DNA of 64,000 nucleotides, from assembly GCF_027921745.1 (NCBI RefSeq), contig NC_079240.1:186001-250000 (forward strand), written 5' to 3'. The notes beneath the pieces are model-generated. The model was not told the origin of the DNA. It searched no databases and saw only the letters and a list, made by a program, of their open reading frames with translations. A program made the translations under genes and the position numbers. This document shows positions 33,664-56,189 of this stretch, piece by piece (within the stretch, counting starts at the first letter, position 1; each line of letters starts with the position of its first letter). This DNA is from Schizosaccharomyces osmophilus (taxonomy: Eukaryota).

Positions 33664-35262
33664 ATGGCAAGGGTCTTAACAATTGTCATGCTGGTCTTTG
33701 TGTCCATGGCCGGATGGATGTTCGGTGCAGACACAGGATCGATTGGTGGTATCACAAATATGCGCGACTTTCAATCTCGATATGCAGACAAATATGACAA
33801 GGATACAAATACCTACTCTTATTCTTCCGCACGTCAAGGTCTCTTAACCGGTATGGTCAACATTGGATCCATGACAGGCTGCATTCTATCCTCACCATTT
33901 GCTGACCGTCTCGGTAAGCGTAACTCTATTCTCTTTTTCACCTGTGTTTACCTCATCGGTATTATTGTACAACTCACAACGCTCCCTTCTTGGGTACAGT
34001 TCATGGTCGCAAAGATGTGGACTGGTCTTGGTATCGGAGCTCTCTCTGTACTAGCTCCCGGGTATCAATCTGAGGTTGCACCAGCTGCGATGCGTGGTGC
34101 CATTGTCACTACCTACCAACTTTTCATTACCGCCGGTATTTTCATCGCCGCTTGCATTAACATGGGTACCTATAGACTCGCAAAAAGTGCTTCTTGGCGT
34201 GTTCCTATTGGAGTTAACTTGCTCTGGGGTCTCATTACTCTAGTCGGGATTCTTTTCCTCCCCGAATCCCCTCGTTATTTAATTTCTGTTGGCAGAGACG
34301 AAGAAGCTTTGCAGATTATGTGTAAGAACAATGACCTCCATCTTGAACACGAAGTGATTCAAACTGAATACCAAATGATTAAATCGGATTGTGATGCTGA
34401 GTTGGCTGGCGGTCCTGCTAAATGGCCAGAAATCTTCAGCAAAAATATCCGCTACCGTACTTTCCTTGGTATTGGCGTCATGTCTCTCCAACAACTTACT
34501 GGTAACAACTACTACTTCTACTATGGTACTCAAGTATTCCGCGGCACTGGTATGACCTCTCCTTACCTATCGGCACTAATCCTTGACGCTGTAAACTTCT
34601 GCTGCACCTTTGGAGCTCTTTACGTTATGGAGCACTTTGGTCGCCGTATGCCTTTGATTATTGGTGCACTTTGGCAATCACTTTGTTTCTTTATTTACGC
34701 CGCAGTTGGAGATCGTTGCTTGTATCAATCTGATGGATCTACTAACCACCGAGCTGGTACTGTGATGATTGTTTTCTCCTGTTTCTTTATTTTCGCTTTC
34801 TCTCAGTCTTGGGCTCCCGGCGCGTATGTTATTGTTGGTGAATCGTACCCTATTCGTTTCCGTTCCAAGTGCGCTGCAGTAGCAACTACCGGTAATTGGT
34901 TTTGGGGATTCTTGATTTCCTTCTTCACTCCCTTTATCACTAATACAATTGGTTTCAAATATGGCTACGTCTTTGCTGCTTGCAACCTGTGTGCTGCTAT
35001 TGTCATCTTCGCCTTTGCTCACGAAACCAAAGGTCTTACGCTGGAAGAGATCAACCTCGTTTATATTTCTGGTCGCAAGCCATGGTCGCCCCGTCCCAAG
35101 AACATTGCAAGTTACTCTGACCAGCGTAAGGAAGCTTTGGCAGGAGACAAGCATGATGATGTTGACCATCTGGAAACCTTTACTTCTGACAGTATGGAAA
35201 ATGCTTCGTCTTCTCATTCGAAGCCCAAGTCGAAGTTTATCGACCATATCGAGCAGGTATAA
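33664..35262 (+). CDS. ght5: Hexose transporter, Ght5-like
   Basis: Sugar-porter motifs; position between ght6 and dga1; paralog assignment blurred by gene conversion. Confidence 0.75.
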
Positions 35263-35979
35263 AGTTACTAGATATTCCAAAGAATCTTCACGACACCCAT
35301 GTCTATTGATTATTCAATTCTCTTAATCAGGCTTTTGGATTTATATAAAGCCACCTCAATCGTTCCCCCAACCTAAAAACCCTGGCCATTCTTCATTGAA
35401 TGCTTTCAAACTAAATTTTGTGTTTCTCTACGCATTTTCATGAGTTATGACATATAGTTAACTGTATGAATGGATGCTTGTTTCATTCATTCGTAAACTA
35501 CCTATTAATTATCCATCGACGTCGGCATTACCTTTCATTTTATTAAGTAAATTACAGCCCATAAGGAAGCAGTGGAAAACCTTTGGCATTTTCGAACATA
35601 TTTCGCGTTGATTATAGAATGAACTCCACTAATTAGAAATCGATGAGCAAAGTCAATTGTGCTCGTTTATAATTGAGTTATTCCCAAAAGGGCAAAGAGG
35701 ATACTCAAATACATATTCTTCTTGCCTTGTATTTGGTGACTACCCTTCTTTAGTAATGGAACTACCTTCTGTTTATTTTTTCATAGAGCCCTTTAATTTG
35801 GTGATTGAATCGATAGAATACTAGCAAGTTGAATCAATGATGTTTACAATTGATCATAATTTTTAATAGCTAATAATGTACGGTAATAACATGTATATAA
35901 TAGACTGCAAGAACAACAAGAGGAGTAAGTAAAGTTTATTCTTTTTATAATGTTTTTTCGACTGAAAAGACAAAAAGTC

Positions 35980-36051
35980 TGCTCCAGCAGTGACTTGAAC
36001 ACTGGGCCTCTTGCTTACTAGGCAAGCGCTCTACCACTGAGCTACAAGAGC
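35980..36051 (-). tRNA. tRNA-Thr(AGT)
   Basis: Reverse complement GCTCTTGTAGCTCAGTGGTAGAGCGCTTGCCT-AGT-AAGCAAGAGGCCCAGTGTTCAAGTCACTGCTGGAGCA folds as a 72-nt cloverleaf, followed by a T5 terminator. Confidence 0.96.
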
Positions 36052-37644
36052 TACTTAGGTACTTAAAAGTATATAAAATGTATAAGCTAATTGCGGATCT
36101 CGTATGAACGGGTTGGTACTTCATCCGGATAACCACGAAGAGTAGAGCAATTAAAAACTTTGATTTAAGGACAAGAAGAAAATTGTATCACATGCTGCTA
36201 AACGGCGGGTAGATGAAAAATCTGTATTGCTGTGATCTTATCTAATATAGTACTAACGAAATTCTCTCTTGAATGTTGAATTCTGCGCACTTGCAGGACT
36301 CAAAACTGCGCTGGATCAGCTGCAGCAAATAGATCGTTGCAAAGCTTGTGCTACAAGCCGTTAATGAATACTATATATAACCAAGCATTATTCACGGTGC
36401 GGATTGTCTACGGCGATGCCTATTTATTAATACATAAATTTAAGTTGCTTATGTCAACTATTACTAGAACATTACCTAGTCAGTGAGTGCTGAGCCCAAT
36501 ATTAGTCTACGTGAAGTACATTACTCTGGTTGAAGCGCATTGCTTATTGGTATGTTTCATGGATTATTACCTAAACTCAAATCTCCTTCAAAATCACAAG
36601 AAAATGCGGCGTTCATCTAGTAATAATAACTACCAAATTCAGTTGGGTGTCTTCCTGCTTGTGCTGCACAGCTGTAATCCTTATCTTCTTTCTTAGACTT
36701 GCAATTATGTGCACTGGCGTATGGATGAGCCCTACTTTACCGGAGTCACAGGCCTCACCTCAGGTGTAGGAGCTTTTTAATGTTGTTCAGCTGTCCGATC
36801 ACTGCTATCACTATCACTATCACTGCTGACGGTTAGGTGCAAAGCACAAGTTGGCGTTACCAGGTAGTAGTACCGAAAAGTAACTGGGTGTCATACCAGA
36901 CTTGGCTTCCATGGCTTTATATACCTCATCAACATGAACTAACGAGTTGTCGTTTACATTTATCACAGTTGCAAATGTCAGATTTATTACATTTGGTATC
37001 CGTGATATAAATTCTTGAGATAATGTTCAGTTCCCATGTGAGAACATAAGTCAGTTAGCATCAGGGTATTTTCAAAGGTTGGTTGGTGACCAACAAAATT
37101 ATCGATATTTCTCTCTCTAAGAGGTAAAGTAACCCTAAAACCCATACTTATACCTATTTACGGTATTGATAATACCGCGATGAGTATAATGAAATAAAGC
37201 CACAGCCTGGTTTTTACGGTGTATGTTTTTGTAGATTGAAAAAGTTCGTTCTGCTCGTATTGGGCTCTACTTTACCTATAGTGAAAGTATTCTCAGGTCT
37301 ACGGATTTAATTAGCTGATTAAATTGACAATTCGAATGTATGAAGTCAGATCAGTCGAATCTTTTAATACGAGGAATTGTGCTTCAACCACAGAGTTTAT
37401 ATAACTTGTAGGATATATGTATCTAAATAGCGACTTGCCTTCAGTTTGCTTGAATTCCAATATTCATTGTTTATTTTTATACTGGACTCTTCTGTATTAT
37501 TATATTACAATATCTAGGCCTTGACACTAGAGTAATCAATGAATTAGATTACATCAAAACTATCCTTCCGCAAACCACATTGTTTATCGTCCTTTGCATT
37601 CAATTGAAGATTATATTACAAGAGAGCCTTTGGATGTACGAATA

Positions 37645-38991
37645 ATGCAGGAAAAAACAAAAACCGCGGGCCCTATACCCGGAATTCTAGAGTCCACAAC
37701 GGTTACTCCGAAATACAACAAATCCCATTTAACAAGGTCGGTTGAGGCATTAGCCGTCTTCCTTCATAGTGTCAGTTTGACGCTTACTGCGTCTTGTTTT
37801 ACAATTTTATGGTTATTTTTACCGATATGGCCTGTAAGTACATAATTAATAGTGATTTGAGGCATGGGGGGACGTCGAAATCTTTGATTCTACAAATATA
37901 GTACTGAATCCAAGCCAGTTGCTATACTGGTTTGCTTATCAAGTTAGATAAGGCTTGAGCACAAAATTTACGCCAAGCGTGTTTTGGATCTATCCTTTAA
38001 ATACATTGATGTTAACGGCTACAGATTCTTTTGGTATATGTGGGATGGTTGTTTTATGATGACGCTTTCGTGACAGCTAAGGGCCGTCAAAGTTTATGGC
38101 TACGAGGAGCTGCTCCGTATCATTGGTTTTGCCATTATTTTCCCATTCGTCTTCATAAGACTGCGAATCTTGACCCAAAAAGGAATTACATTTTTGGCTA
38201 TCATCCTCATGGAATTCTATCCCTTGGAGCCTTTGGTGGCTTTGTGACGGAAGGTATGTAACACCACATAATATGATGTTGCTGCTTTTGCTAACACTTT
38301 TTAGGCGCCGAATTTAGCAAACTGTTTCCGGGTATAAACGTTTCTGTCTTGACTTTGAATTCTAATTTTTATGTTCCCCTATACCGGGATTATTTGCTTG
38401 CTTTGAACGTTAATTCTGTTTCAAAGAAGTCTTGTGTCAATATTTTATCTAGAGGTCCTGGCGAAAGTGTTGTTATTGTCATTGGGGGTGCACAGGAATC
38501 GTTGTTATCCCGTCCCGGGCAAAACAATTTGGTATTGAAGAAGAGATTGGGCTTTGTCAAGTTGGCCTATTTGACTGGCTCAAGTTTGGTTCCTTGCTTT
38601 GCTTTTGGCGAATCTGGTACGTTCTTAAAATATATAATATTTTCAAGAATGAAAAAGCTGACTTCTTTTAGATATTTTTGAACAAGTAAACAACAATCCT
38701 GGAACTCGCATCTACAAGTTTCAAGAAATTATAAAAAAATTGGCTGGGTTTACTATCCCCTTTTTCTATGGCCGAGGAATATTAAATAAATCATTTGGCT
38801 TAATGCCCTGGAGAAAGCCAATCAATATCGTCGTCGGAGAACCCTTGGATTTGCCTAAGAAATCAAATCCGACAAGCCAAGAGCTTTATGAAACTCAAGA
38901 AGAATATATTCGCCGACTTGACGAACTTTGGAACAAGTATAAAGATGTATTTGTTCCAGAAAGAGTAAAAGAGTTACATTTGGCTGCTTAA
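37645..38991 (+). CDS. dga1: Diacylglycerol O-acyltransferase (DGAT2), four exons
   Basis: YFPIRL, FGYHPHG, VIGGAQESL and GFVKLA...LVPCFAFGE DGAT2 motifs. Confidence 0.94.
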
Positions 38992-39720
38992 ACGTCGCCT
39001 TTTTGTAGCTTTTCTTTTCGCCTTTCAAGTTCTTTCTCACTTTTTCACGTATTTATAGTCTGCCCCTCTTTTCAGTTTTGTTATTCTCCTTTAATCGGCC
39101 TTTTCATATATTCCATAAAGATCTTCGCTATACTAATTGGTTCAGTTTTATATATACAGTATATTAAGTATTCAATATCATGTTCGTGATACAGTCTTTT
39201 CTTTTTACAAGATATTGCAAGTGATTTACTATTTGCGCTCTTTCATTTTGTTTCATCCTGTTTATGTATGCTTTTTACTTGTGTACTATTTCGCATAAAA
39301 AGGTCAAACCCAGCTAATAGACAGTCAAAGATGCGCCCATGTCTCCCTATAGATTCTTTTGGAATAAATCGTCGTGTACAACCTTTATTCATAACTGCAC
39401 ATATTATATTATATTTAGCCTTAAAAATTGCGTCTTAAACCAGGAAACGATGCATGCGAGTTTTGAAGTACTACACGGGCTACTAGTCCATGTCACATTT
39501 ATGAAACTACTAGAAACATTCTTTCTTGTCTTTCCTTCAGATGGTATTGTTCTCGTACAAAAGATATATATATGTCATTGTTGATTAAGGCAAGCGTTTC
39601 CATTCCTTAAAGCCTCTTTAACGTAATGTAGTTTAGTGCACTAAAAGCATTTACGAATATAGAATCAAGCAGAAATGTCTGAAAAAGAATTGCTGCAGAG
39701 CATAATATCAGAATTGAAAA

Positions 39721-40167
39721 ATGGTAGTTAAAGTAGAATTACTGTATGTTGTATGCTGATTTCGTTCTTTTTATTAATTACAAGTGCAGTGGAGGGTTGG
39801 ACATGCTCTTTAAGAAGCAAAAGGAGCTCTCTCTGGAGCTTGCAGAACTAGGGGAAGACAAGACACTAAAGTCCTTGATCCATTTCATGGCTGAGAAAAT
39901 CGAAAGCCCTACTCAAAAAGAACTTTTTTATCTGGATGGCACGGTGTATGTTCGACTTGTAGTACTTTTCTGCTTGTTGATGCTAACCTATTTAACTAGT
40001 CGTCCTGGTATTATCGTCTTGGTGAATGATCAAGACTGGGAACTTCTCGATAAAGAGGAGTATCTTCTTGAAGACAAGGATCAGGTTGTTTTTGTGTCTA
40101 CTTTACATGGTATGTTGGATGTTAACTTTTGCAAACTACGAATACTAACGGTTCATTAGGAGGTTAG
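39721..40167 (+). CDS. urm1: Ubiquitin-related modifier Urm1 (four exons; last exon 40160-40167 completes the GG)
   Basis: VKVELL|GGLDMLF...[16 protein letters not shown]...FVSTLHGG*. Confidence 0.93.
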
Positions 40168-40459
40168 TTCAATAAGAAACTAGATTAGGCGTGGTTTTTG
40201 AAAACTACGATTGGAAGGATACAAATGAAGATTCCATTGAGTACACCAGGCTGTAATATATTGTATATAGTGATGTTTTGATGCAGGCAGTTTGAAGCAG
40301 ATTTAAAGACACTGCACTGCGGTCCAAGTAAAGATTTTATTGATTGAAACAAAAAAGAAGGAAACAAGATTAATAATAATAATTATACACTAAGCATAAA
40401 TCGGGCATGAATTTTGAAAGAGGTTTATGGAAAAGTTTGTTATAATTTTATATATGACA

Positions 40460-41950
40460 TTACTCTTCATCTTCAGACTCAACCTGAATCGTTCCTGTCC
40501 GACGTAATGGTCTTCTGGAGGCAGCGGCAGAAGGAGCATGAGAAGAAAAGGAATTATGGTCATCTTCGTCAACATCAAATGTATTCTCATTTCTTTCCAA
40601 AGCGGAATTAAGGCGTGGCCCAAATTGAGGCATATCCTCATCACCAGCGTCTTCTTCCTCATCGTCAAGTAGCATGGATGTGGATCTGGACCGAGGATGC
40701 CGAATCCTTTTTATAGGACGGTCTTCTTCTTCTGGGTACCCATACCTTTGGTAATCATCACTTTCATCATGTAATTCATCCAGCTCTCTAGCCAATTCTT
40801 CATTTTTCCTATTTTCTAATTCTTCTGAATCAATTTCTTCATCGACAGAGCCTGTAACCTCGTGGTCATCGCTGCCAACCAATTCGACTTGCGACGCCGA
40901 ATTGGGTTCATCTCCATCTTCGTCTGGGACAACGAAATCATCTTCATTGCCATCATAAGGGGACAGCTGGCTTGCATTGCGATTATCAATAAATTCATCA
41001 TCCAAGTCATAGTCTCCAGCACCGGAAAAATCGGATTCTGGTTCTTCCCCAAAACCTATCCAATCTTCTGGAACAGCTGTAATTGGGGGTCTCCGTGAAA
41101 GATTCACCCTTCTTTGAGCTTCTTCTTCACTGCCTCCGCTTCCAATATCTTCGTTATCCCAGAACCATTCCGGTTCTGAGTCGGCTTCATCCGAAATTTG
41201 AAACCCGCAATGGTCACAGTGATATGGATTCTCTAACTCCCATTGACAGCGGGCGCACCTCAACACTCCATCCTCTGCATCTTGGACAATGCCAGTGGGA
41301 TACAGAGACTCTGCTTCTTTAAACATTCCATCAAACAAAACCTCTTCCCGACGTTTCGATGGATCATCTCTCGTCTTAAGCAGTGACAAACTTGGATCCA
41401 CACTTGCAATTATGCCCATCAAGTCATACACAAGATACGCTGGCGATGGTTGGGTATGAACCTTTTGACGACAAGTAGGACATGATTTCGATGCTTTAAG
41501 CCAGCTTTTTAAACACTAAATAGTTCTGTTAGTAACTTTTTTCCAATAGCACGTTCGGCAAGGCTGTTTTATTATCCATTGTACAAAAATATAGAACAGC
41601 AATGTAGCAGTACACGCCCTCTTCGATTAAAAACTTACCTCATAACAATACGTGTGTCCGCATGGTGTTGTAAAGGGCCTTTGCAGTGTTTCTGTACAGA
41701 TGGGACAGTCGATTGTTTTCTTAAGTCTTGTCAAAAACGAGGGTAAATCCACATTTGACGTTATGTGAGTTGATTCGTTTGGTACATTCTTCAATTGAAA
41801 ATCCAAATAGCCTGTTTCATCCTCTTCCTTGTTTACTTTTTCGTTTGTGAAAGGTGCTGAACTGTTTTCTGCTTTGTTCATGGTATCCGAATCTTTTTCC
41901 ACATTCTTTTCATGGAATGGATATACGGAATCGCTTTCTTTTGTTACCAT
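40460..41950 (-). CDS. dbl5: RING E3 ubiquitin ligase with acidic tail, Psh1-like (exons 41950-41639, 41515-40460)
   Basis: CPICTE...PCGHTYCYE|CLKSW...SCPTCR RING; second Zn motif RCARCQWE...CDHC; start codon uncertain. Confidence 0.8.
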
Positions 41951-42775
41951 CACCTTTGTAGCAAAAGGCTCTCCAGTTTTTATTCGTTGTTTATGAACTT
42001 GGCCACTCCTGTTTTAAGTAAACAAACTTCTTCCTGCAGTGTCGATATAATCTTTTCCAAGTACCCAGTAAATTATAATATCTATGAAAAATGCTTCGTC
42101 CCTTTCTTACCAAGTTTCTTCCAAAACAGTGCTCTGTTGACGATCATGTTCATGAATTTTGGCAATCCTTCCTCATGAACCATTTAGTGTGTTGCCGTAT
42201 ACTTATTAGCGTTCAGCTTTAATCTTCACAATACAGATTGTCAAAACTAAACGACTCGTTATACCCTTTCAACGAACAAAACGTAAATCTGTAAACTCTT
42301 TCAATGTAAGCAATCGTTTCGAAAAAGACGTATGGAACTTTAATAAAACTTTGAGACTTGCTTAAGAATAATCTATCAAGTTACGTATTATCTTGTTTCA
42401 TTACGAAAACAATTTACTACCTTGATTTCTGATTACTACGGTTTACGATCGAAATGGGATTCTCATATTAAAAGTGCATTTATTTTTCTTCGATTCAATC
42501 CATTAACCATTTCAAAAAAAAAGGCAAAAAACTCTTTGAATCGATTTTCTAATGAATTCTTTCGAACGAGTATCAATTAAACAAGGAAAGATAAACATAC
42601 CACAATTAGTTATTAACTGAAAGTTTTGTACAAATAGAAGGATTTAGGGACATGCAGGGTTCGATAGTATGCCGAGCAAGAACTAATGGCATGATGAAGG
42701 AGAAATGAAAACAGCAAAGAAGGGAAACATAGGAAGAATTTTCTTCAAATAAGATCCTATACATTATGAATTAAA

Positions 42776-44404
42776 TTAGCAAAAGCGATCTTGTTCGTCA
42801 ATATGAGCAGCCTCATGCTTGTGTCCAGCAATAGGGCTGCTTCCGGAAGAGCTTTCGACGCTGTCTTTCGAAGTTTGAGCATGTTCAACGAATTTCGAGC
42901 TTTCTCCATGAACACCACGAGACTTTTCAAGAGCTTCGTCTTGGTGTCGGGAGTACTCGCCAATGTGCTTGGGACGGGGCATCCAGGGCTGTGTACCGGA
43001 GGTATAAACGAGATTAATTTCTTCCAGTGTAAGACCCTTCGTCTCGTGGGCGAAGAGGAAAATGATGATAGCACCGGCCAGGTTACAAGACGCAAAGACA
43101 TAACCATACCTGAAGCCAATGGAGTTGGTGATGAAGGGAGTGAAGAAGGAAATCAAAAAGTTCCAAATCCAATTACCAGAGGTAGCCAAGGCAGCACATT
43201 TGGAACGATAACGAATGGGATAAGATTCACCAACAATTACGTATGCTGCAGGAGCCCAAGTTTGAGCAAAACAGAAAATGAAGAGACAAGAAAAGACGAT
43301 CATGACAGCTCCTGAGCGATGGTTTGAGGATCCGTCAGGACGTTTCAAAGCCTTATCACCAACAGAGGCATAGATGAAGAAGCAGATGGATTGCCAAACA
43401 CCACCAAGAATGAGAGGGTTACGACGACCAAAGTATTCAAGGACGAAAATGGCACCAAAGGTGCATCCAAAGTTGACAGCATCAAGAATCAAAGCAGCCA
43501 AGAAGGGAGAGTTTAATCCGGTACCACGGAACACTTGGGTACCGTAATAGAAGAAATAGTTGTTACCAGTAAGTTGTTGAAGAGACATGACAGCAATGCC
43601 GAGAAAGGTACGATGGCGAATTTGCTTATCGAAAACTTGAGGCCAGGTGCAAGGACCGCCAGCCAACTCAGCATCACAATCCGATTTAATCATGTGGTAT
43701 TCAGCTTGGATCACTTCATGTTCAAGAGGGAGGTCATTGTTCTTGCACATAATTTTCAAGGCCTCTTCATCTCTGCCAACGGAGATCAAATAACGAGGAG
43801 ATTCGGTGAGGAATAGAATACCGACTAGAGTAATGAGACCCCAGAGCAAGTTGATACCCATGGGAATACGCCATTGTGCAGTCTTGTTGAGTTTATGAGT
43901 GCCCATGTTAATGCAAGCGGCGATGAAAATACCGGCGGTAATAAAAAGTTGGTAAGTGGTGACAATGGCACCGCGCATCGCAGCTGGTGCAACCTCAGAT
44001 TGGTAACCAGGAGCAATAACAGAGAGAGCTCCGATACCAAGACCAGTCCAAATTTTTGCAATCACGATTTGAACCCAGGAAGGAACTGTAGTGACTTGAA
44101 TAATGATGCCGATTAAGTAAACAATGGTCCAGACAATAATAGAAGTACGTTTACCGATGCGATCAGCCAAAGGCGAAGAAAGAATACAGCCGCTGAAAGA
44201 ACCGACGTTGACCATACCAGTCAGCAAACCTTGGCGAGCCGAAGAGTACGAATAGGTATCTGTATCCTTGTCATATTTATCTGCAAAACGCGATTGAAAG
44301 TCGCGCATATTTGTAATACCACCAATCGATCCTGTGTCTGCACCGAACATCCATCCGGCCATGGACACAAAGACCAGCATGACAATTGTTAAACCCTTCG
44401 CCAT
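42776..44404 (-). CDS. ght8: Hexose transporter, Ght8/Ght5-like
   Basis: 542-aa sugar porter; position after dbl5; mosaic sequence makes the name tentative. Confidence 0.7.
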
Positions 44405-44766
44405 CTTGTGGATCTATTACAAGAAAAAGAGAGAGTTCGTTAAGAAAGAGAGAGGGTGAGGGTGAGGAAGAAAATAAATGTTCGCTAATGAAAAGACTAG
44501 GGAGACACTGAAAAATGGCTTACAAGGTTGAGCAGCAAGTCAAAAGAAGATATTATGATTTTGGAACAAAAACTTTAAAAGATAAAGTTGATGGAACCAG
44601 GCAACAAAAGCTTAAGAGAAAGAGAGTTGCAAAGAAAGGAAAATGAAGTTAAGAAGAAAGACAATCGATGTGATCAATTTTGATTCTCCAAAAATGTTTT
44701 TTGTTAAAACAAAGTTAGAAACCCTGAATTTCTTGTTTGCTGAAGAATCCATAGTCTGGGACCTTC

Positions 44767-44871
44767 ATATATATAGTAAATAAGATAAAAGGAAAACATC
44801 CAAGGGGCGGAGTGCGGGGACAATGCGGAGATTACCTGGAGACCACTCGATGACATTTCTTGAATGTGGGG
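44767..44871 (-). promoter_or_regulatory. TATA element plus cluster of five SYGGRG (Scr1/Mig1/CreA-type) sites upstream of the ght8-like gene
   Basis: GCGGAG 44807, GCGGGG 44814, GCGGAG 44825, CTGGAG 44836 and GTGGGG 44866 in AT-rich DNA; ATATATAT at ~44767. Confidence 0.6.
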
Positions 44872-45851
44872 AAACAAAAACAACCGCTGTAAGGCTTTTG
44901 ATTGGCTGTTACATAAACCCTTTTGAGCGAATTGTTACCGTAAACAAAGGCTAGGCCTGTCGATTCGAGTCTAGACTAAAAAAAAAAAAGAACAAGGAAA
45001 TCGACAGGAATGTTCCGCTGGGAAGCCCACACAAGTTCCGGAAAAATGGATTGAAAATGGGGAAATGCAAGCAGATATGTTTTGAACAAAGGCAAGAAAA
45101 AAAACAGCGCTTTTTGTTTGTTTTGTTTTTCCCTTATTGTTCCTTTGTTGTAGATTTCTCCGATCGTTGTTTACGAATGAACTAAAAATAAGGTTGAGGC
45201 CGTCCATTTTTTCCTCCGCTTATAGGGTGACCTAACGCCACATGAAAGGGTATAGGGTTGATATTAGGTTGCTCAACCTTAAATGAACAAATCGAACGTA
45301 AGAGGCTGGTTTCTCCGCATATGTGGAGAAGGCTATGACGTTTGCAATTGCCATTGCAAAGCCTGGATGGGGAAAGGTCGCAAAGTAGCGAACGAATGCT
45401 TTGTTGTTTATGCGATAGCATTCCTTCCATTTTCGTAAAAAATCTTTACGATAGCTTATCTTTCCTAAAGGACCAAACAAGGTACTTTTGAAATTGATCC
45501 TATGCCGAGGATGATGATACTCAAGAGACCAGCTAGCTGGCCTTTTCCTCTGGATCTATTCATTCTTAAGACGATACCAAATATGATTGTATGATATATC
45601 GTCCTATGGTATTGTGATGTAAATAAACAAAGAGCTGGAATGAACTTGCGAAACAGCAGTGAAGAAAAAAATCAATGGAAGTTGAGGCGTAATTTAGCGA
45701 AGAATTGTTGCAATGCTTACACTTATTTGCGATTGAGAAAGAGGTCGCTAGGAGATGATCATCTAGGAAGCAAAAACTACGCTGTTCAGTCAACAACATT
45801 TCGTTCTTAATAGAATCCTTCTTATAGAACCTTTCTTTTGTAGATCTTGCC

Positions 45852-45973
45852 ATCTACGTCCATACTTGCTGAAAGCACCAGTTCCCGTCCGATCACTGCA
45901 GTTAAGCGTCTGAGGGTCTCGTTAGTTCAATATTGTGGTCGGAGACAACATGGGAATCCGGGATGCTGTGGGT
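45852..45973 (+). rRNA. 5S rDNA copy A (variant, probably non-functional)
   Basis: CACCAGTTCCCGTCCGATCACTGCAGTTAAGCGTCTGAGGG...GGAGACAACATGGGAATCCGGGATGCTG matches Schizosaccharomyces 5S; diverged 5' end and an internal insertion. Confidence 0.88.
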
Positions 45974-46980
45974 TTCTATTTAATATTTTTGATTTTTTGT
46001 ATTCTCATATTGCATAACTTGTTAATTTTAATTCATTTAGAATACAGTGAACTTTCCAAATTTTGTTAGTGCAAACTATTACTCTCCATAGGGCTAGTCC
46101 ATTTCAAAAAATCGAGTAACAAGAAGTGTATAAAGTATATAGAATGATGTTGAAACATGCACACTTCTTGCCAACATTCCAAAATAGGTGACTTTGCTTT
46201 GTTTACCTTATGTAATATAGTATACTCGGTAGGAAAATATTTATATAGAATAATTCTGACAGGGCAAGTACTTTGGAATTTGACAATGGAAGTGGATTCA
46301 ACGGTAATTGCTCATGACATTGGCGATTGATTAACAAATTTGAGCAAAGTTATTAAATATTTAGAGGGATATATGTATAAGTTTGGTCTGGCGAAATAAA
46401 TTATGGTATCAAACATATACATTAGCTCAGATAGCAATTGGAGAAAAAATGTTACTTGCATAATAAACTATAAACTATAAAGTAAAAATAAAAAAAAAAG
46501 CATAACCGAAAACGCAATTCAATGCATGTTCCTAACTAAAAGAATCAATGTTTTCTTTGTTTATCAATATATAAAAATATACTGGATTGTATTATCATAT
46601 AGCATGAATGAATGTAATACTGGACATAGAGACGCTTGACAGTCAGATCCATCAAATATTGCTGCCAAGGATAGGAACCAATATACCGTTTCTCAAGCCA
46701 AGCGCAAATTTATGTATGTTTAGCAATGGAAAAGGGGTCCATAAACGCGACTTAGTTACTCCTTTTTCGACGACCTATGAGCTGTACCTTCCTTCCCTAC
46801 TTGAGAACAAAGAAACCCTTGGGTATTTATTTATATAACTCATGGATAAACTGGAACTTGTCGTGATCATAGTGGTTCTTGGATTTTTGGAGCCTTGAAA
46901 GACTCTGCATTGCATTAAAAGTTAGTCTTTCTCTTTCCAATCTATTCATCGTTCATTTACTTTTATTCATCCATTTGAAA

Positions 46981-47703
46981 ATGACTCAAGATTTATTCGA
47001 TAATGCAAGTGGGATTCCTCCCCCTTCTGATGATTCTTATGCAGAGCAAAGATTCACAAATGAATCCACGGACGCGATTTCCCAAGATCCGTTTAATTCA
47101 TTCAGAAGCAAAATGGCCATCCTTAATAAAGCAGTTACAGCTAGACTAGAAGAAGGTGGGTTTTCACAAGATGATGTGTCTGACATTCGACAGATGCTTC
47201 AAGAGCTCACAGAAGGACAAACTAGCCTTCAAGAAGAGATGATCCAAGCACAGAATAGCCTACGAGAAGAACAAGATCGCCTCAAGGGAAGACTAGAAGG
47301 ACAATATGAAGTGGTTGAAACCAATTATCGAGCCAGTATGGATGATATTGTTAAAAGTATTGACCAAAGTGATTCCAAGATAAACAAGACAAAAAGCTCA
47401 GTACAGAGAACTGAAAACTTTTTAAACAGATATTTCGCTAGTGATACAAAACCAATTCCATTTATCGATGGACGAGATCCTCCTTCTTGGCTCCCTAAAC
47501 TAATCGCTATTTCCGACATTGATAATTTGAATCCAAACCAATTGAAAACGTATCTGGAGGGATATGGTGGTACCTATGATGAGAAGGAGTCTCAAACATC
47601 TCTTAAAAGAAATCTTGCTGATTATGTTGGCTTTATAACGCCCCATGATAACCGTTACGAGTTTTCAGAAAGCAATGAACCCTTTCCAAAATATATGACA
47701 TGA
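46981..47703 (+). CDS. Tdk1/Mug135-family (DUF1773) coiled-coil protein, 240 aa; candidate killer meiotic driver
   Basis: Heptad coiled-coil stalk, then QRTEN...IPFIDGRDPPSWLPKLIAISDIDNLNPNQLKTYLEGYG...LKRNLADYVG, recognised as the DUF1773/Mug135 C-terminal domain; first true ATG is 46981. Confidence 0.8.
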   Translation: MTQDLFDNASGIPPPSDDSYAEQRFTNESTDAISQDPFNSFRSKMAILNKAVTARLEEGGFSQDDVSDIRQMLQELTEGQTSLQEEMIQAQNSLREEQDRLKGRLEGQYEVVETNYRASMDDIVKSIDQSDSKINKTKSSVQRTENFLNRYFASDTKPIPFIDGRDPPSWLPKLIAISDIDNLNPNQLKTYLEGYGGTYDEKESQTSLKRNLADYVGFITPHDNRYEFSESNEPFPKYMT

Positions 47704-47884
47704 AGTTAATACAACAAATTGATGAAATGTACTTTTGTCTCCCCACGGTTGATTAATGTTTATGAACAGCATGGATTCCTGCTTGCTTCCTAAAATGAAG
47801 CTTACCCCGGAGACTAATCAAACTCAACATTTTAATCCTGCAATGAATGTTTTTATCTCTCACATCATCATAATACTGAAAGTA

Positions 47885-48001
47885 GTCATAAATAATTTCT
47901 GGCTGTCGAAATGCCAATTGCTGTTTGATCATCGCAGTGAGGCCTGCTTAACCTACTATGCATGATTGGGAGAAACATGGGAATTCGGGATGCTGTAGGT
48001 T
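47885..48001 (+). pseudogene. 5S rDNA copy B (highly degenerate)
   Basis: 3' end AACATGGGAATTCGGGATGCTGTAGGT is clearly 5S; GATCATCGCAGT is a remnant of GATCACTGCAGT; 5' boundary approximate. Confidence 0.75.
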
Positions 48002-48628
48002 TCTTACTAGTTTTTTATTCCTTTCTTTTTTTGGTTTGCGTTTTCTTGCTTTTTACTGACTTCTCATGCGATCCAAACGCAATACGTAACCACCAAGGAA
48101 AGTGGAAACCAAAGTCTAAATTTTGTCAGAAATAAAAAACAATGAAAGCTTGTGCTTTTATTTGATACTTGCTCTGTTTTTCTTCTACAAAACTGCCATT
48201 CATTTGGGGATGATTCCACCACCTTCTGTTGCAAACCTTCTCTTCAAACTAGTAGTCACCACCAATTGTCCAGCATGAATGGAATTGTATCCTATCGAAT
48301 ACACTATATCGGCTCTACGCCGCTCATTTTGTCTTTGTTTGATATTACCCCTACATCTTGACCGCACTTGATCTTTGCTTCGTATCGTAATTTCATTAAC
48401 GTTAACATATAAACTCTCAATTTATTAGTCAAAACTTTGCAGACTCGTTTCAGGATCCAAGTAATAAATAAATAGTAACGATAAGAATAGAAATAAGGGG
48501 GATATCCATTACAAGAGAAACTGTCCAAGCTTCATACTTTAGAGGACACTTAAGATGAAGAAAGAACACTTCATCAAACGAGAATCCGTGGTTTTGACTT
48601 GTAGCACAGCTACAGTTGAACTGCTAGC

Positions 48629-48865
48629 TTAACTGCCGCCACCCCAAGCCGCTGCACTTGGATCACCTTCATTAATGGGGTTGGGTGTTTCTCTTCTGAA
48701 AACAGCACCCGAAGCAGTACCTTCAGCGTCACCTTCAGCAATTGGTGTAGGGGAGTCTCTCTTCAATGTTAGCGCAGAAGCAATACCTCCAGCGGCACCT
48801 CCATGAAGATTGGCAAGAGTAATACATAGAGCCATCAAGAGAAGGCTGGTCAAGAAACTGCGCAT
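48629..48865 (-). CDS. Small secreted Kex2-processed repeat peptide precursor (78 aa)
   Basis: Signal-like MRSFLTSLLLMALCITLA; KR and RR sites each followed by a related unit (DSPTPIAEGD / ETPNPINEGD); A-rich ATG context; TATAAAT ~100 nt upstream. Confidence 0.7.
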   Translation of the reverse strand: MRSFLTSLLLMALCITLANLHGGAAGGIASALTLKRDSPTPIAEGDAEGTASGAVFRRETPNPINEGDPSAAAWGGGS

Positions 48866-49640
48866 TTTTTAATGAAAAAAAAAAAAAATCAAAATCAATT
48901 TGTAAAAAAGGATGGTAATGATGGATGGCTATGAAACTCATTTACATTCAAGATGTCCCAATTTATAGTTTTCATAATTGAAAAATTGTCATTCTAAGCC
49001 ATTCCCTAAATTGCGTCTATAGCATTACCTGAAAGCAAGCAATAGAAACAAATCGATGTCAATTGCTTCGAATACACCACAATTAAATCATCGCATTGCC
49101 ACTTGATATAGTAACAAGTATCTATTATCTAAGGCTCATAATAAGTGATCTATGCGGCAATGCGCAAGGCGAACATTTTTTGGTTTCATTGGACTTTGTT
49201 GATCAATTTTGGCAATTTACAATTCCTATTTTGGCATCTGGCCGGTTAGCTCAAATCGTGACATCCGTAAACATGATGTTAATTTCATTTAGTTTGCTAT
49301 GAAATGAATTCACAAACACATGTAATAGCCATTGTATATCGTAGGATACATTTCATTATCATCCTATGTCTGTGCGGCGCTCAATAAATTTCCTAACCCT
49401 ACAATGATCTTCAATGTTTACGAATATTTCTACGTCTCATAAATGCATCCAAGGAAATAGAAAAGTTCATCATACTGGATTTCCTTTTAATAGTTCAACT
49501 GTTATTTCCAGCTTTTGTATGAGCGTAAAAAAAAAGGCCATTCATTCATGTACGGATGTGATAAAAATTTATGAAAAATATTTCGTAAAAACAACCATTT
49601 CATATTCGGATACCATGTTGAAAAATATACTTCCTAACTT

Positions 49641-50333
49641 CTATAATTGTTGAATAGCTTGCTCCCGTTCCTTTAAAGTAGCAGCAACGGCAGGACGCTC
49701 AACAAGACGTTGATGCCAAGCATAAGTCTTGGGGAACTCCTTTTCGAAATCCAATTGAGGAAGTTCTTCCTTGAATTCATGCTTTCCTGGGCCAAAAATA
49801 TATGGCACTAGAGCGTTCCAATTCACAAAAGATGCATCGGCGATTGTGTACTTGCCGGCGACAAGGTAATCCTTGTCTTGAAGAATGGTTTCTAAAACAC
49901 CAAGCACGCGCTTAATTTCATTTCTGTATCTAGTAACGGCCGATGCAACTGGTTCTGGGTGATAGAAGTTGAACCAAGAAGCTTGTCCCCAAATGACACC
50001 TTGACCAGAAGACTGGAAAAAGAGATATTGAAGAAGATGATGATAATCGGGATGGTCATGAGGTAAGGAAATCTTTCTTTCCTTGTCGTATCTGTCTGTC
50101 AAATAGGCTAAAATAGCATCGGATTCCCAGATTGCATAATCATTATTTTGGTGATCAACTAGCGTTGGGACTCTTCCATTAGGATTGTAAGCAAGGTGCT
50201 GTTCGTTCTTTTGCTCATTCTTTGAAAATTCATAAAACACAGTTTCATAAGAAAGATTTAGTTCTTTCAAAGCAATAACTGGTCTCCAAGGATTGGGACC
50301 ACCTTTGTGAGAGAATAGAGTAAAGTGCACCAT
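49641..50333 (-). CDS. Glutathione S-transferase (Ure2/Gst1-Gst2 type)
   Basis: GPNPWRP, NPNGRVPTL, IWESDAIL and YTIADASF GST motifs; ATGACGT (50546) and TGACTAA (50438) stress-type sites upstream. Confidence 0.92.
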   Translation of the reverse strand: MVHFTLFSHKGGPNPWRPVIALKELNLSYETVFYEFSKNEQKNEQHLAYNPNGRVPTLVDHQNNDYAIWESDAILAYLTDRYDKERKISLPHDHPDYHHLLQYLFFQSSGQGVIWGQASWFNFYHPEPVASAVTRYRNEIKRVLGVLETILQDKDYLVAGKYTIADASFVNWNALVPYIFGPGKHEFKEELPQLDFEKEFPKTYAWHQRLVERPAVAATLKEREQAIQQL

Positions 50334-50959
50334 TCTTTAAAAGGTTTAGTAAACGTAAATTGTTCAGTTGTTAGAGTAAAAAGTTAGGAGTTGGCTGCTT
50401 ATATACAAAATCATAAGGCAAAACAATGTTGGTTTGATGACTAAAAACAAAGCTTTGCTTACAAAGCAAAAGTTATTGTAATAGTATGATCTTCTAGTAA
50501 GAAATTTAAATGTCGACTTGCTTTTAGTGTTTGCAGCGTTATTAAATGACGTCTTCGAAGGCTGCTGACTGACGAGTTCAACGGTTTTCGTGTTACAACA
50601 GTGGCATTCTTAATCAAACAAATGGACTCGTTTTTCCGTCGTTGTAGTTATGTTTGTATACTATGGAGTGCAAAATATAGATTGTGATTGAGCGATGCTT
50701 GATTTTCGCAGCTCTTGTAGCCCGATGCAACAATCTTCTGTTACAGCATATGAGTACTATAATATTTATATTTCTAGTCGTTATATGATCAGTTATGAGA
50801 TTCATTTCAAAAAACTATATTTTCTATACCAAAAACTTCCTTTATTATTACTATTCAATGAACCTTTACATACTTTAAAAGGTGTGCAAGTGACGATATA
50901 GAACTATTTCTTTAAGCTTTAATAAAATCCAAAAAGAGAAAAAATAAATTAATAACAAA

Positions 50960-51830
50960 CTTTTGAATACGCACAGGGAAATCTCCTTATAGCCTCAGAC
51001 TTGCTCTATCCAAGGTTAGAATAAAATTCATAACAATTTGATTTCGCCCATGAACTGATGCAGTTAATGTTCTTTCAATTGGTTCATTGTCAGAAAAGCA
51101 AGACTTACTTCTGCGCTGCGATTACGAATTACGAAGAAGAGCAAAGGCTCGAGTGTTGTACTCTAGATTTGATGGTCTGAGACCTACAGCCAAACGAAGT
51201 CGGGATGCGAAAGCCCTCATGGCCCTTCAATTAGCTTTTACAGCGCATATGTATATATGAATATTCAAGCGCCGCCGTACATCACCCATGTCGACTTGAG
51301 TGTTGATTTCAAGTTAAGCAAACGGGAACGTCCATATTTTGCCAAAGGAAGCTGCTGAGGTCGTCATTGATAGAGTTGTAGCCCGAGGCCAGTCATGTCC
51401 GTTGGGCTGTGATGACCGGCAAAGGTGTGCCCGGGGATGAAGTTAGCTTGGAGAAGGAAGACTCTGTTTCTGGGTCGGCTGAGGATTTCCATAACTTTCT
51501 TGAATGCTTTCGCAAGGTAAACGATGATTTCATCTTGCATGCGACGGGGAAATTGGCTTGTCCATAGGCATCCATTGTTGGCACTAAGGGATTATGTCTG
51601 AGATCCATTGCAACGAAACGAGGAGGATTCTTTAACGATTTGACTTTGAAGATGTCTCCAGTCCTTTTGTCTGAACTTTGTTGACGATCTTTCCTGTTAG
51701 TCATGGAAAGCTTGCGGTCGCTTTTTCAAGGCCATTCGTCAATGTGCCAATAATTGCTGGGTATCAGAGCATCATTCACTGCAAAATAAAAGCCTAAAAA
51801 TTTGTATATATTTTTTAGAGCTATAAGATC
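50960..51830 (-). pseudogene. TRI101/AYT1-like O-acetyltransferase pseudogene
   Basis: Frameshifted, collinear fragments: LTNGLEKATASFP*LTGKIV, PRFVAMDLRHNPLVPTM, VFLLQANFIPG..FAGHHSPTDMTGLG (HxxxD), SINDDLSSFLWQ, FASRLRL, SSWAK...SEAIRR. Confidence 0.75.
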
Positions 51831-51834
51831 AACT

Positions 51835-51958
51835 GTCTACGGCCATACCCAGGCGAAAACACCAGTTCCCGTCCGATTAGTGCAGTAAGTAAAAACGTCT
51901 GAGGGCTTCGTTAGTACTACGGTTGGAAACAACATGGGAATCCGGAATGCTGTAGGTT
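51835..51958 (+). rRNA. 5S rDNA copy C (variant; insertion in box A region)
   Basis: GTCTACGGCCATACCCAGGCGAAAACACCAGTTCCCGTCCGAT...CATGGGAATCCGGAATGCTGTAGG followed by a T-run. Confidence 0.9.
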
Positions 51959-52581
51959 TTCTGCAATTCTTGTTCTTTTGTATGCAACCATCGCCTTGCT
52001 GTCGTTTTGATCGCCATGGTCCTTTGACTTAGTGATACTAGTGGATGCGGAAAATGCAATGATTACTCTTGATTCAATAATTAAAAGTCTTACTAGTCTT
52101 ATTAAATAAATAAAAAGGATCAAGGATTAAGAGCGTCAAACGAATAAATAACAACAAGCAATTGAACCAAACTATGCAGGTACAATGACAATACCATCCA
52201 GTGATAACCACCCTTCTTATTCAATGTCGAAGAGATGAAGTGAATCAAGAAAACGGCCGCCATTTAGGAGCATTAGTCATGCAAAAAGCATTTTAATATA
52301 TATGCAGGAAAGAAATAACCGAAACATAAGCATAAGCATAAACATAAACATAAAGCATGCTGGAGAAAAAACAACAAGACCGGACATTATAATAAACAAT
52401 GCTTTACTTTCCGTATAAATCACTCCCACTGCTTTCAACATCCCTAGACTGACCCGGTTTCTGGCGTAACCCTGGAGATTGCTCAGAATGTTCAGAGGAC
52501 GGTTGTTTGAAAGTATTATCACTACGATCGTTGAAGCGGTTTTCAGGCTCTGGTGGCAAGCTGTTTAATGGGATACAATTA

Positions 52582-53224
52582 TCATCCGTCAAGTCGTTTT
52601 CTATCCGATGACATCCTGAAGCCTAGAGCACTGGTAATTGCAGAAAGTAATATAACGACTAAATCCACCAACACTAAAAGTACCCCATTAGTAAACATAT
52701 CAAAATAAAATTCCACCATTTCACTTACATGAACAAACATATAGAAACATATAGAAAGTCATGACGACAAGAACAGCTGCCACAGTAGCTTGAAACCATG
52801 TCCATACAGATTCTTTCATCGGTTCCTTTATAAAGGGGACAAGGAAAAAGTAAGAAAAGAAAAAGTCCAATACGATTGAACCAATAAAGCACCAACCAAG
52901 CCGAAGAACTTCATTCTCCTGTCTCCGCTTTGCTTCGGAGATTCTCGCAATTTTTGCCGGCCAGAGAATCAACCACAATAATGCCGTCAAGGCATTTCGT
53001 AAAAGAATAAAGAATCCGCTTCCTTGTGCCATGTTGGTAGACGCTTCTTGATGTCTGTTTTCTGAGTACGGAGGTGCATGACCTTTTTCCAAGTCGTCTA
53101 GATGAGAATTCAAGATTTCATTGTACCGTGGCAGTTCACCGTCAAACGTTGCAAGAGTGCCCAAGCGAGGAACGTCAGCTGAATCAGCATCTTTTAGCTT
53201 TTTGTATTTGTTTTTTTCAGTCAT
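52582..53224 (-). CDS. wag: wtf-associated (wag-like) membrane protein (exons 53224-52729, 52673-52582; 3' end uncertain, may extend to 52404)
   Basis: Divergent from wtf inside a 5S-5S interval; 3-4 TM segments; intron GTAAGT...ACTAAT...TTTTAG. Name assigned by position and architecture. Confidence 0.65.
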
Positions 53225-54125
53225 TTTCTGAAATTCCTTCAAAACCTACTCAAACAGGCAGTAAACACCCAAATTCATGTCAGAACTTTCAAAAAGTAGC
53301 ACACATCCGATCCGACTAACAAGCTTAATAAAATCTACTTTGTAACAACTCCAAACTACATGAATCGAGTCCACAATGGCAATGGCTAGAGTTTTGCAGA
53401 GGTGAAGCTGTCATCCACCCTCTCTGACACACATACCGATAGCTAGTAAGCGTACGCTATTCTATATATATTTACAATGAATGAACAGTCCGAAATCGCT
53501 TTTGTTTGTTTCTATCGTGTAATCAAGATAAAGTAGAATAAAAAGAAAGATGTACTTTTCAGTACAAATGCTGTTCGTGACAGTTTAAACGTTGCTTTTC
53601 CAGACTTCCGATGGATTTACGAATGCTAAAAGTAAGGCTACGAAAATCCAGTGTTCGAGCTTTTTCCCTGGAGTTCATTAAGCCACGGTCACTGAACCTT
53701 CCAATCCCGTGTATATATCATTCAAAGCAAACAGCATGGTTGTTTTGCCAAATGTTCCTTTGTTTACATTTTGTAATAAACGACGACTCTTTTGGATTAT
53801 AAGAATACAGAAAGTCGCAATGGGGATGAACGTTAAATAATCGTAACGAGGATGTGACCAGTCAGTGACATAATGTCGCAGCTTTATAAATTGAGACATG
53901 CGAAAAGCCATTACCAAGATTTTTTCAAACTCGCATCTTTGGTTTTTAAGGGAAAAGTTGTGTTGAAAAATTTGTTTGTTTTTAACGTAAGGTCCAATTC
54001 CTATTTTTGAAAGATCTGTGAAAACTGGGGCCAGTTCCTACGGACTTTTCTTGGTGATTAAATAGTTGATTTCGTTTAGAGGGTAAATATCGGTGTTATT
54101 TTGGGCTCTGATTGCCATTGTAAAT

Positions 54126-55322
54126 ATGAAAAACAAATATACTCCTATTTCGGATTCTGATGACTCTTCCAATACGCTCAATGATGAAAAGGCAGATACG
54201 CATTCTTCAGATGGTACGCCTCCTCCGTATTCAGGTAAGATTAGTTGAAATAGAAAGGAAAGGTTGATTCTTTGGGTGCGTGTTTAAAAGATTTTGGTTA
54301 AAGGGAGTTCTGATGGAAGAATCATGTTTATTTATTTGTTGGGTTTGAAACTAATAACCTTGTCGATAACTGTCAACAAACAGGGCGAATACCTCTATCC
54401 TTTCACAAACAACGAACTATTTACTAATACATCCATTAGCTTCAAACAAATTTATAGATCTAGAAATAGCTGATGGATCCGCTCAGAATTCCGCCCAAGA
54501 TACTGTTAATAATACTAGGTCGAGTTCGATGGATAAGTGGCAGATAATAATGTACTTGTTGTTTTTTACTTCTTTTGTGTATATTATATTTTATGCTATT
54601 CTTCTTGTGTTATTTTTCACTTCCAAGGTTTTTGTGAATGCACAAACCCTTTGGGGGCTTTCTGCTGGCTGTGCAGCATCCTTTGCATTGTTTCTGTTTG
54701 GTAAGTTAGCGCTATATTTTATTTTTAATGATCTAATAAGTATTAGCAATCACTCAAATGCCTAAAGAATGGTTCCCGCAGGCCAAACAAGGGCTCACAC
54801 AAGCTGGGAGAGCAACCAAACAGTTTTGGTGCAATATGTGCATCGCAACATTATTTTTACTACCTTTGGATGTTTCTTTATTCATTGTGTACTATAAAAC
54901 GAAGAGGTTAATAGGGTTTGAAACTGTGGACTTTTATTGTTATGTGTTTATTATTTTTTTAGACATAGCCTTACTTCCTCTTTGTACGAGTATGTTATAT
55001 ACCCGCGAAATATTCTAACTGTTTTAGCGAACGCAGATGCGCGTGAACAACTAGGATTAATTGTTGTTGATCTAAAAAACGGAATAGGAAGCGGTATAAA
55101 TGGCTTAGGAAGCGGCATAAATGGCTTAGGAAACGGCATAAATGGCTTAGGAAACGGCATAGGAAATGCTGTAGATCATATGTTCGGTATGTACACTTTG
55201 CAAATGCTTCCTTTCGTAACATCGTACTAACCTATTAAGAAGGGACAAATCGAAGAGATGAAGCACCTCCGAACGAAGAAATTGAACTTCAACCTCTTGC
55301 TGAGCAAAGCGCTGAAGTTTGA
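54126..55322 (+). CDS. wtf: wtf meiotic-driver family gene, 5 exons (54126-54234, 54440-54700, 54747-54989, 55028-55186, 55240-55322), 284 aa
   Basis: Exon 1 MKNKYTPISD...TPPPYS (PY motif); TM-rich exons 2-3; GINGLG(S/N) heptad repeats; C-terminus ...SAEV*; all four introns canonical and in frame. Confidence 0.92.
54372..54382 (+). promoter_or_regulatory. FLEX-like (Mei4 forkhead) site in wtf intron 1
   Basis: GTCAACAAACA, one mismatch to GTAAACAAACA, ~150 nt upstream of the in-frame exon-2 ATG at 54529. Confidence 0.6.
55081..55166 (+). repeat. 21-nt coding tandem repeat in wtf exon 4 (~4 copies)
   Basis: GGAA(G/A)CGG(T/C)ATAAATGGCTTA repeated. Confidence 0.9.
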
Positions 55323-56065: not shown

Positions 56066-56189
56066 GTCCATGGCCATACCTAGGCGAAAACACCAGTTCC
56101 CGTCCGATCACTGCAGTTAAGCGTCTGAGGGTCTCGTTAGTTCAGTACTGTGGTTGGAGACAATATGGGAATCCGGGATGCTGTAGGAT
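56066..56189 (+). rRNA. 5S rDNA copy D (near-intact, 124 nt with a 5-nt insertion)
   Basis: GTCCATGGCCATACCTAGGCGAAAACACCAGTTCCCGTCCGATCACTGCAGTTAAGCGTCTGAGGG... followed by a T9 Pol III terminator. Confidence 0.93.

Follow-up and report, generated by a model that had tools for sequence, protein, structure and literature searches.

The 64-kb window analysed here, positions 186,001 to 250,000 of contig NC_079240.1 of Schizosaccharomyces osmophilus, contains a 240-amino-acid open reading frame (ORF) that is the already catalogued tdk-family gene tdk313, already tested for drive and not a new driver. tdk313 is likely a retired, non-killing copy, and a probability of about 0.55 is given to the combined reading that it is non-killing and reached its site in the distant past through recombination of dispersed 5S ribosomal RNA (rRNA) genes. 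What is new is that, in this single species, tdk loci are found moderately more often than expected next to wtf cassettes and to 5S genes on the same strand.

The ORF occupies 46981-47703 on the + strand. Data 1 of a preprint (PMC12930445; this and the other papers cited were available in part, and what is credited to them concerns those parts) lists S. osmophilus tdk313 as SOMG_04159, chr3 232981-233703, + strand, 723 bp, intact. Since the published length equals that of the ORF, the gene is a single exon, as had been predicted from the DNA. The offset between window and published coordinates is a constant 186,000, which also fits 5S copies A, C and D in the published rRNA table and SOMG_04160, gst2, SOMG_04162 and wtf37 in the gene table (PMC10085805). 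Because length, strand and offset agree, with eight features concordant, the ORF was identified as tdk313/SOMG_04159, a match by coordinates and neighbours and not by sequence-to-sequence comparison. Contigs from short reads (runs X1-X3, one sample) cover 45940-48816 with no differences; they probably come from the same sample and therefore serve as a check of the assembly only. A further run, X4, covers 10 of 30 bins, with tdk313 outside them.

Membership of the tdk family is practically certain from Pfam, Protein Data Bank (PDB) matches and a phylogenetic tree. The hidden Markov model search proposed in the original prediction matched PF08593, Mug135_C (= DUF1773, IPR013902), at residues 156-218 (E 4e-14, 53 bits against a cut-off of 23.8), and the top sequence and fold match of the protein was Tdk1 of S. 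pombe (PDB 9ja6 and 9ja5, C-terminal domain). Ahead of this domain the predicted model has a single long helix, residues 63-152, in keeping with the foreseen order of N-terminal region, stalk and DUF1773 domain. The Z-domain motif LF.N..GIPPP is discernible with three unique changes, in a part of the model with a predicted local distance difference test score (pLDDT) below 50.

46981 to 47703, + strand: tdk313 (SOMG_04159), intact single-exon tdk-family ORF, 240 amino acids (ORF list, PF08593, published table)
47002 to 47100, + strand: Z-shaped N-terminal domain, about residues 8-40, with changes F10S, a one-residue deletion near 22 and F29S (alignment; low model confidence)
47167 to 47436, + strand: coiled-coil stalk, predicted as a single helix, residues 63-152 (structure model)
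47446 to 47634, + strand: PF08593/DUF1773/IPR013902 C-terminal domain, residues 156-218 (Pfam; fold match to 9ja6 and 9ja5)

Close relatives, at 44-56% identity, are Schizosaccharomyces proteins throughout. A tree of the C-terminal region was built from 37 proteins, 11 of them close relatives and 26 taken from the 28 matches that came next; one fragment, one multi-domain match and weaker matches were left out. tdk313 falls in a clade with support of 100/98 together with tdk302, tdk305 and genes of S. cryophilus and S. octosporus, with Tdk1 and Tdk210 outside it. Its sister is tdk305 (94/85, not starred). This clade, which has no S. pombe members (PMC12930445), is probably the published clade B of non-pombe species only, and tdk313 is absent from all five published syntenic sets (PMC12930445).

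Transmission of tdk313 has been measured in S. pombe with the gene at ade6 under the tdk1 promoter, where 26 tetrads gave 102 viable spores of 104, divided between 51 carriers and 51 non-carriers (P = 1; PMC12930445). The 95% interval for viability of non-carriers, computed from these published counts, is 0.90-1.00. The original prediction had proposed a tdk-family driver or derivative, and had named Mendelian transmission in a heterozygous cross beforehand as an outcome that would speak against it; such transmission was found, in S. pombe and not the native host, so that "derivative" fits but "driver" is unsupported. Six extra genes tested alongside tdk313 showed no drive, and among 21 homologues tested likewise in S. 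pombe, drive was seen in two, tdk210 and tdk203; tdk11 gave marginal drive with the strong adh1 promoter only (PMC12930445). It is probable that tdk313 does not kill in its own host either.

Three changes in the tdk313 protein are unique among 20 proteins: Ser for F/Y/L before the IxPP motif (F10S), a one-residue deletion after that motif (near residue 22) and Ser for F/L/Y at position 29 (F29S). In Tdk1 the Z domain determines the oligomeric state and builds the toxic foci (PMC11551393, PMC11551426). The PP linker motif of active drivers is also absent, with GGFSQDD at the aligned site where relatives from the tdk313 clade have RPQDD or PPQDD, and Tdk1 and Tdk210 have PPxW. Among columns invariant in six relatives tdk313 keeps 63 of 81 (0.78), the lowest of the seven proteins (others 0.84-1.00), and its match in variable columns is lower still (0.47). 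The C-terminal basic tail of five relatives is not present; since tdk305 is also without it, this loss was not scored as a lesion. In neutral simulations a 723-bp frame stayed open in 6% of trials at 10% substitution and in <1% at 20%. Since the frame is open despite ∼50% protein divergence from every relative, tdk313 has been selected for most of its history. Taken at the level of sequence, these patterns suggest an old, selected gene with early decay in the Z domain. The available text of PMC12930445 contains no discussion of the lesions.

tdk313 shares with S. pombe tdk1/mug135 (PMC11551393, PMC11551426; 9ja5, 9ja6) the N-terminal domain, the coiled-coil stalk and the PF08593 domain, at ∼24-30% identity in the aligned part, and differs in having no PP-W linker, no drive and a FLEX core far from the start. 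The residue facing R255, the Bdf1 contact of Tdk1, is Ser in tdk313, in an uncertain register. Like tdk313, tdk1-HT3 and the reconstructed tdk315 ancestor are intact ORFs without killing, proposed to represent a stage before pseudogenisation (PMC12930445); those alleles were shown to be resistant to a known killer, whereas resistance by tdk313 is only putative and a cognate killer is not known.

The surroundings of tdk313 had been described as a box of two direct-repeat 5S copies, A and B. A lies ∼1 kb upstream of the gene and B 0.2 kb downstream, on the same strand; two further copies, C and D, follow.

45852 to 45974, + strand: 5S ribosomal DNA (rDNA) copy A, full length (Rfam RF00001 62 bits, published rRNA table)
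46200 to 46206, - strand: GTAAACA FLEX/forkhead core, 781 bp upstream of the ATG (motif search; not above chance)
47889 to 48001, + strand: decayed 5S relic "copy B", well conserved only at 47966-48001 (local alignment, nhmmer)
51835 to 51958, + strand: 5S rDNA copy C (Rfam 67 bits, published rRNA table)
56066 to 56189, + strand: 5S rDNA copy D (Rfam 86.5 bits, published rRNA table)

Copy A was confirmed as a full-length 5S sequence; its 5′ end is divergent, and it has a 5-base insertion in common with copy D. Copy B had no Rfam match even at E≤10 and is missing from the published rRNA table. Aligned locally to 47704-48600, A, C and D nevertheless land on 47889-48001 with scores of 89, 80 and 80, against means of 45-46 for dinucleotide shuffles, none of which reached the score in 1000 for each query. 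An nhmmer profile of A, C and D placed copy B at 47907-48001 (E 3.4e-8), and no other 5S relic in the window fell below E 2. Global identity to A, C and D is 57-62%, divided into 81-86% over the last 36 bases (47966-48001), which are followed by T runs, and 34-49% over the rest. About 11-15 bases are deleted in the alignment, a deletion which we take to span the box A promoter region. Judged by its sequence, copy B is a real same-strand 5S relic; it is unlikely to be functional, and its spacing makes it plausible that it was once full length. The box is thus overstated, with an intact A but a dead B. That tdk313 is the only gene between them was borne out, the other ORFs being 57-76 amino acids long and a tblastn search of 44405-51834 with the wag ORF and wtf pieces of the window yielding no wag or wtf remnant below E 0.3.

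Over bases 20-121, A has 94% identity to D, which lies 10 kb away, and C between them carries a different insertion. The likeness of A and D points to conversion or duplication among local 5S copies, and A, C and D may all be variant or pseudogene copies.

A TGTTTAC site (GTAAACA on the opposite strand) is present at 46200 as predicted, and is the sole GTAAAYA of the spacer. It lies 781 bp from the tdk313 ATG, compared with 116 bp for the FLEX motif of tdk1 (PMC11551393, PMC11551426), and active tdk210 and tdk203 are without a Mei4 site (PMC12930445). In the window GTAAACA occurs in 29% of 1-kb stretches and GTAAAYA in 45%; as evidence the core was rejected, its frequency being not above chance. 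The bases around it, 46194-46217, match 53755-53778 between the putative wag gene and wtf37 at 21 of 24 positions (E 0.053, marginal); the match may reflect a forkhead site present in both places, or a remnant.

Proximity of tdk loci to 5S genes was examined genome-wide in S. osmophilus, using the 15 tdk loci of Data 1 (PMC12930445) and the 102 annotated 5S genes of the rRNA table; the count covers annotated genes only. The nearest 5S gene is 494 bp away for tdk305, 504 for tdk302, 506 for tdk310*, 1004 for tdk313, 1078 for tdk303 and 1327 for tdk304; then follow tdk301 at 2420 bp, tdk309 at 3014 bp (opposite strand) and seven loci at 8.6-77 kb. Six of the 15 loci therefore lie ≤1.5 kb from a 5S gene, where 0.38 are expected genome-wide (0 of 200,000 draws) and 1.0, 1.2 and 1.6 in local shuffles within 100, 50 and 25 kb (P 1.8e-4, 5.7e-4 and 2.3e-3). 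With tdk313 removed, 5 of 14 remain (local P 0.0015-0.008). In each of the six close pairs the tdk locus and the 5S gene are on the same strand (P 0.016). The count of homologues beside 5S genes that the original prediction had suggested thus points the way it expected, in one species and more weakly once clusters are collapsed. One single-copy contig joins the 3′ piece of a tdk paralogue to a 5S sequence, in agreement with the table (short side 38 letters).

Several of these loci stand in mixed islands in the gene table: 5S-wtf14-5S-tdk305; 5S-wtf25-5S-tdk310*; 5S-hsp16-tdk304-5S-wtf6-gene-5S; tdk301-tdk302-5S-But2-hsp16-5S-tdk303-gst; and tdk309-hsp16-5S-wtf22. The layout at tdk313 is 5S-tdk313-relic-small gene-gst2-5S-(wag)-wtf37-5S. 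tdk genes are frequent, not obligate, residents of 5S islands. The main text of the tdk paper (PMC12930445) does not mention 5S or rDNA, the terms searched in the available parts of the two Tdk1 papers (PMC11551393, PMC11551426) gave no 5S link, and a literature search, with subscription papers and an unpublished genome paper outside its scope, found no paper joining tdk/DUF1773 with 5S rDNA.

wtf cassettes have same-strand 5S neighbours (PMC9562144), as tdk313 does, and the window has one such unit, 5S-(wag)-wtf37-5S, 4 kb downstream of tdk313. For wtf genes, dispersal by ectopic conversion or circle integration has been proposed (PMC9562144). Gain or loss of wtf31 through 5S has likewise been proposed in S. 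osmophilus. The association is stronger there, with 33 of 42 S. osmophilus wtf genes (79%; PMC9562144) against 6 of 15 tdk loci (40%), under criteria that differ, and wtf spacers are multi-copy and homogenised (PMC9562144) whereas those of tdk313 are unique. In S. cryophilus only 4 of the 117 5S genes are linked to wtf. Five-S-Associated Repeats (FSARs; PMC6538654) resemble the tdk islands in being 5S-bounded units with hsp16 and other ORFs; they differ in forming centromeric tandem arrays in other species, and the available part of that text does not mention the DUF.

Other features of the window, beginning with those of the tdk313 island, are as follows.

48629 to 48865, - strand: SOMG_04160, small hypothetical gene of 78 amino acids, part of the tdk313 island (ORF list, gene table)
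49641 to 50333, - strand: gst2, glutathione S-transferase (GST) (gene table)
52404 to 53224, - strand: SOMG_04162, hypothetical, putative wag gene (gene table; divergent position beside wtf gene)
54126 to 55322, + strand: wtf37, meiotic driver gene (published annotation)

SOMG_04162 is likely a wag gene, to judge from its divergent position next to wtf37 and not from its sequence. SOMG_04160 begins like a signal peptide and carries, behind dibasic sites, a pair of similar peptides (KR-DSPTPIAEGD... and RR-ETPNPINEGD...), an arrangement which we take to resemble a Kex2-processed repeat precursor; it has no Pfam match, and contig depth indicates a second copy of its region in the genome. gst2 falls in one 90% cluster with a 238-amino-acid GST whose length fits SOMG_00022, a gene that adjoins 5S-tdk303 on chr1 in the same order, 5S-tdk(+)-gst(-), as at tdk313; tdk303 belongs to a different clade (PMC12930445). 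In 30067-44404, upstream of the 5S island, are three paralogous ght genes for hexose transporters (534, 532 and 542 amino acids). Overlapping long frames of 415 and 382 amino acids at 3167-4418 (+), rich in low-complexity Gly/Ser/Asn/Asp repeats, are likely one repeat protein plus a shadow frame.

Arrival of tdk313 through 5S genes, as proposed for wtf, is a route that we infer and hold to be somewhat the likelier one. The competing view leaves the 5S genes passive, with tdk genes arriving by segmental or subtelomeric duplication and persisting in insertion-tolerant 5S/wtf islands. It concerns the route only, fits either functional reading, and is regarded as possible but doubtful. The location of 57 of 93 tdk loci in the terminal 5% of chromosomes (PMC12930445) favours it, as does the order 5S-tdk(+)-gst(-), seen twice (tdk313, tdk303) with the GSTs in one cluster, which looks like block duplication. 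The nine loci away from any annotated 5S gene, the single boxed locus of the 15 and the unique spacers of tdk313 also speak for it. It accounts less well for same-strand orientation in all six close pairs, for the three deep interstitial loci tdk304, tdk305 and tdk310*, each 0.5-1.3 kb from a 5S gene, for the same-strand relic that closes the tdk313 unit and for an excess that holds in local shuffles. As to function, an active killer in S. osmophilus, needing a host chromatin factor or an expression level unmet in S. pombe, is unlikely. The ORF is intact and maintained by selection; the clade has intact members in several species and none in S. pombe, where all tested members are silent, as a host-specific target predicts; the authors caution that heterologous tests can fail, and tdk313 was not in the set retested under P.adh1 (PMC12930445). 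Set against this are the 51:51 transmission, the three unique Z-domain lesions, the missing PP-W linker, the 49 of 93 family loci that are pseudogenes, and two S. cryophilus drivers that work in S. pombe, their self-killing alleles even in S. cerevisiae (PMC12930445). A host function of the tdk313 clade unrelated to drive is more improbable still: its long stem branch with strong clade support, its conservation over about 30 million years at about 50% identity and the finding of drive in no clade member would suit domestication, but the pseudogene rate is high, no syntenic set contains tdk313, and copy number and repeat length vary in the manner typical of conflict genes.

Several points weigh against a non-killing tdk313 brought in through 5S genes. 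The drive test was made in a foreign host and with the tdk1 promoter only and, since the clade has no S. pombe members, the host target may be missing there. A resistance activity of tdk313 is only putative, and its clade has no known killing partner. The 5′ 80 bases of copy B are not significant alone, with 29, 168 and 44 of 460 windows scoring as high for A, C and D. Most of both spacers are at single-copy depth (80% likeness in the short-read contigs), whereas the wag-wtf unit reaches 13-30 times background depth, summed contig depth being a rough measure of copy number; tdk313 is therefore not in a multiplied cassette like wtf-wag, and recent multiplication of its unit is not visible. The 1.5-kb cut-off was picked after the distances were seen (at 2.5 kb, 7 of 15 loci lie near a 5S gene), and with clusters collapsed and tdk313 removed, 3-4 of 11 loci remain within 1.5 kb (local P 0.003-0.055). 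Nine of the 15 loci are without an annotated 5S gene within 1.5 kb, and only tdk304 (1 of 15) has an annotated 5S gene on either side within 2.5 kb. Finally, hsp16, But2 and gst occupy the same islands, so the pattern is not driver-specific.

If tdk313 is indeed a non-killing copy that arrived by way of 5S genes, a tdk gene between tandem 5S copies would have been duplicated or cut out and then inserted at a different 5S gene by ectopic recombination, giving 5S-tdk-5S. The downstream 5S would then have decayed while the ORF was held open by selection, and this decay would remove the repeat needed for excision and lock tdk313 in. The tdk313 protein would retain the ability to assemble into Tdk-type coiled-coil oligomers but, its Z domain being damaged and the PP-W linker absent, would build no toxic lattice, and tdk313 would be at most a resistance (antidote-only) allele against close relatives, by the route of tdk1-HT3 and the tdk315 ancestor.

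The available text of the tdk paper attributes persistence of the family to birth and death and names no mechanism by which copies reach new sites (PMC12930445). There is about an even chance that 5S genes are shared landing pads for tdk and wtf, two families of killer meiotic drivers unrelated to each other, forming mixed islands (5S-wtf-5S-tdk), and that the tdk313 clade drives or suppresses only in native hosts. Should tdk genes spread through the 5S network, as has been proposed for wtf, a single property of the host, its ∼100 dispersed 5S genes, would serve both families of drivers. It would also link tdk genes tightly to wtf cassettes (0.5-1.3 kb), affecting the co-segregation and survival of both.
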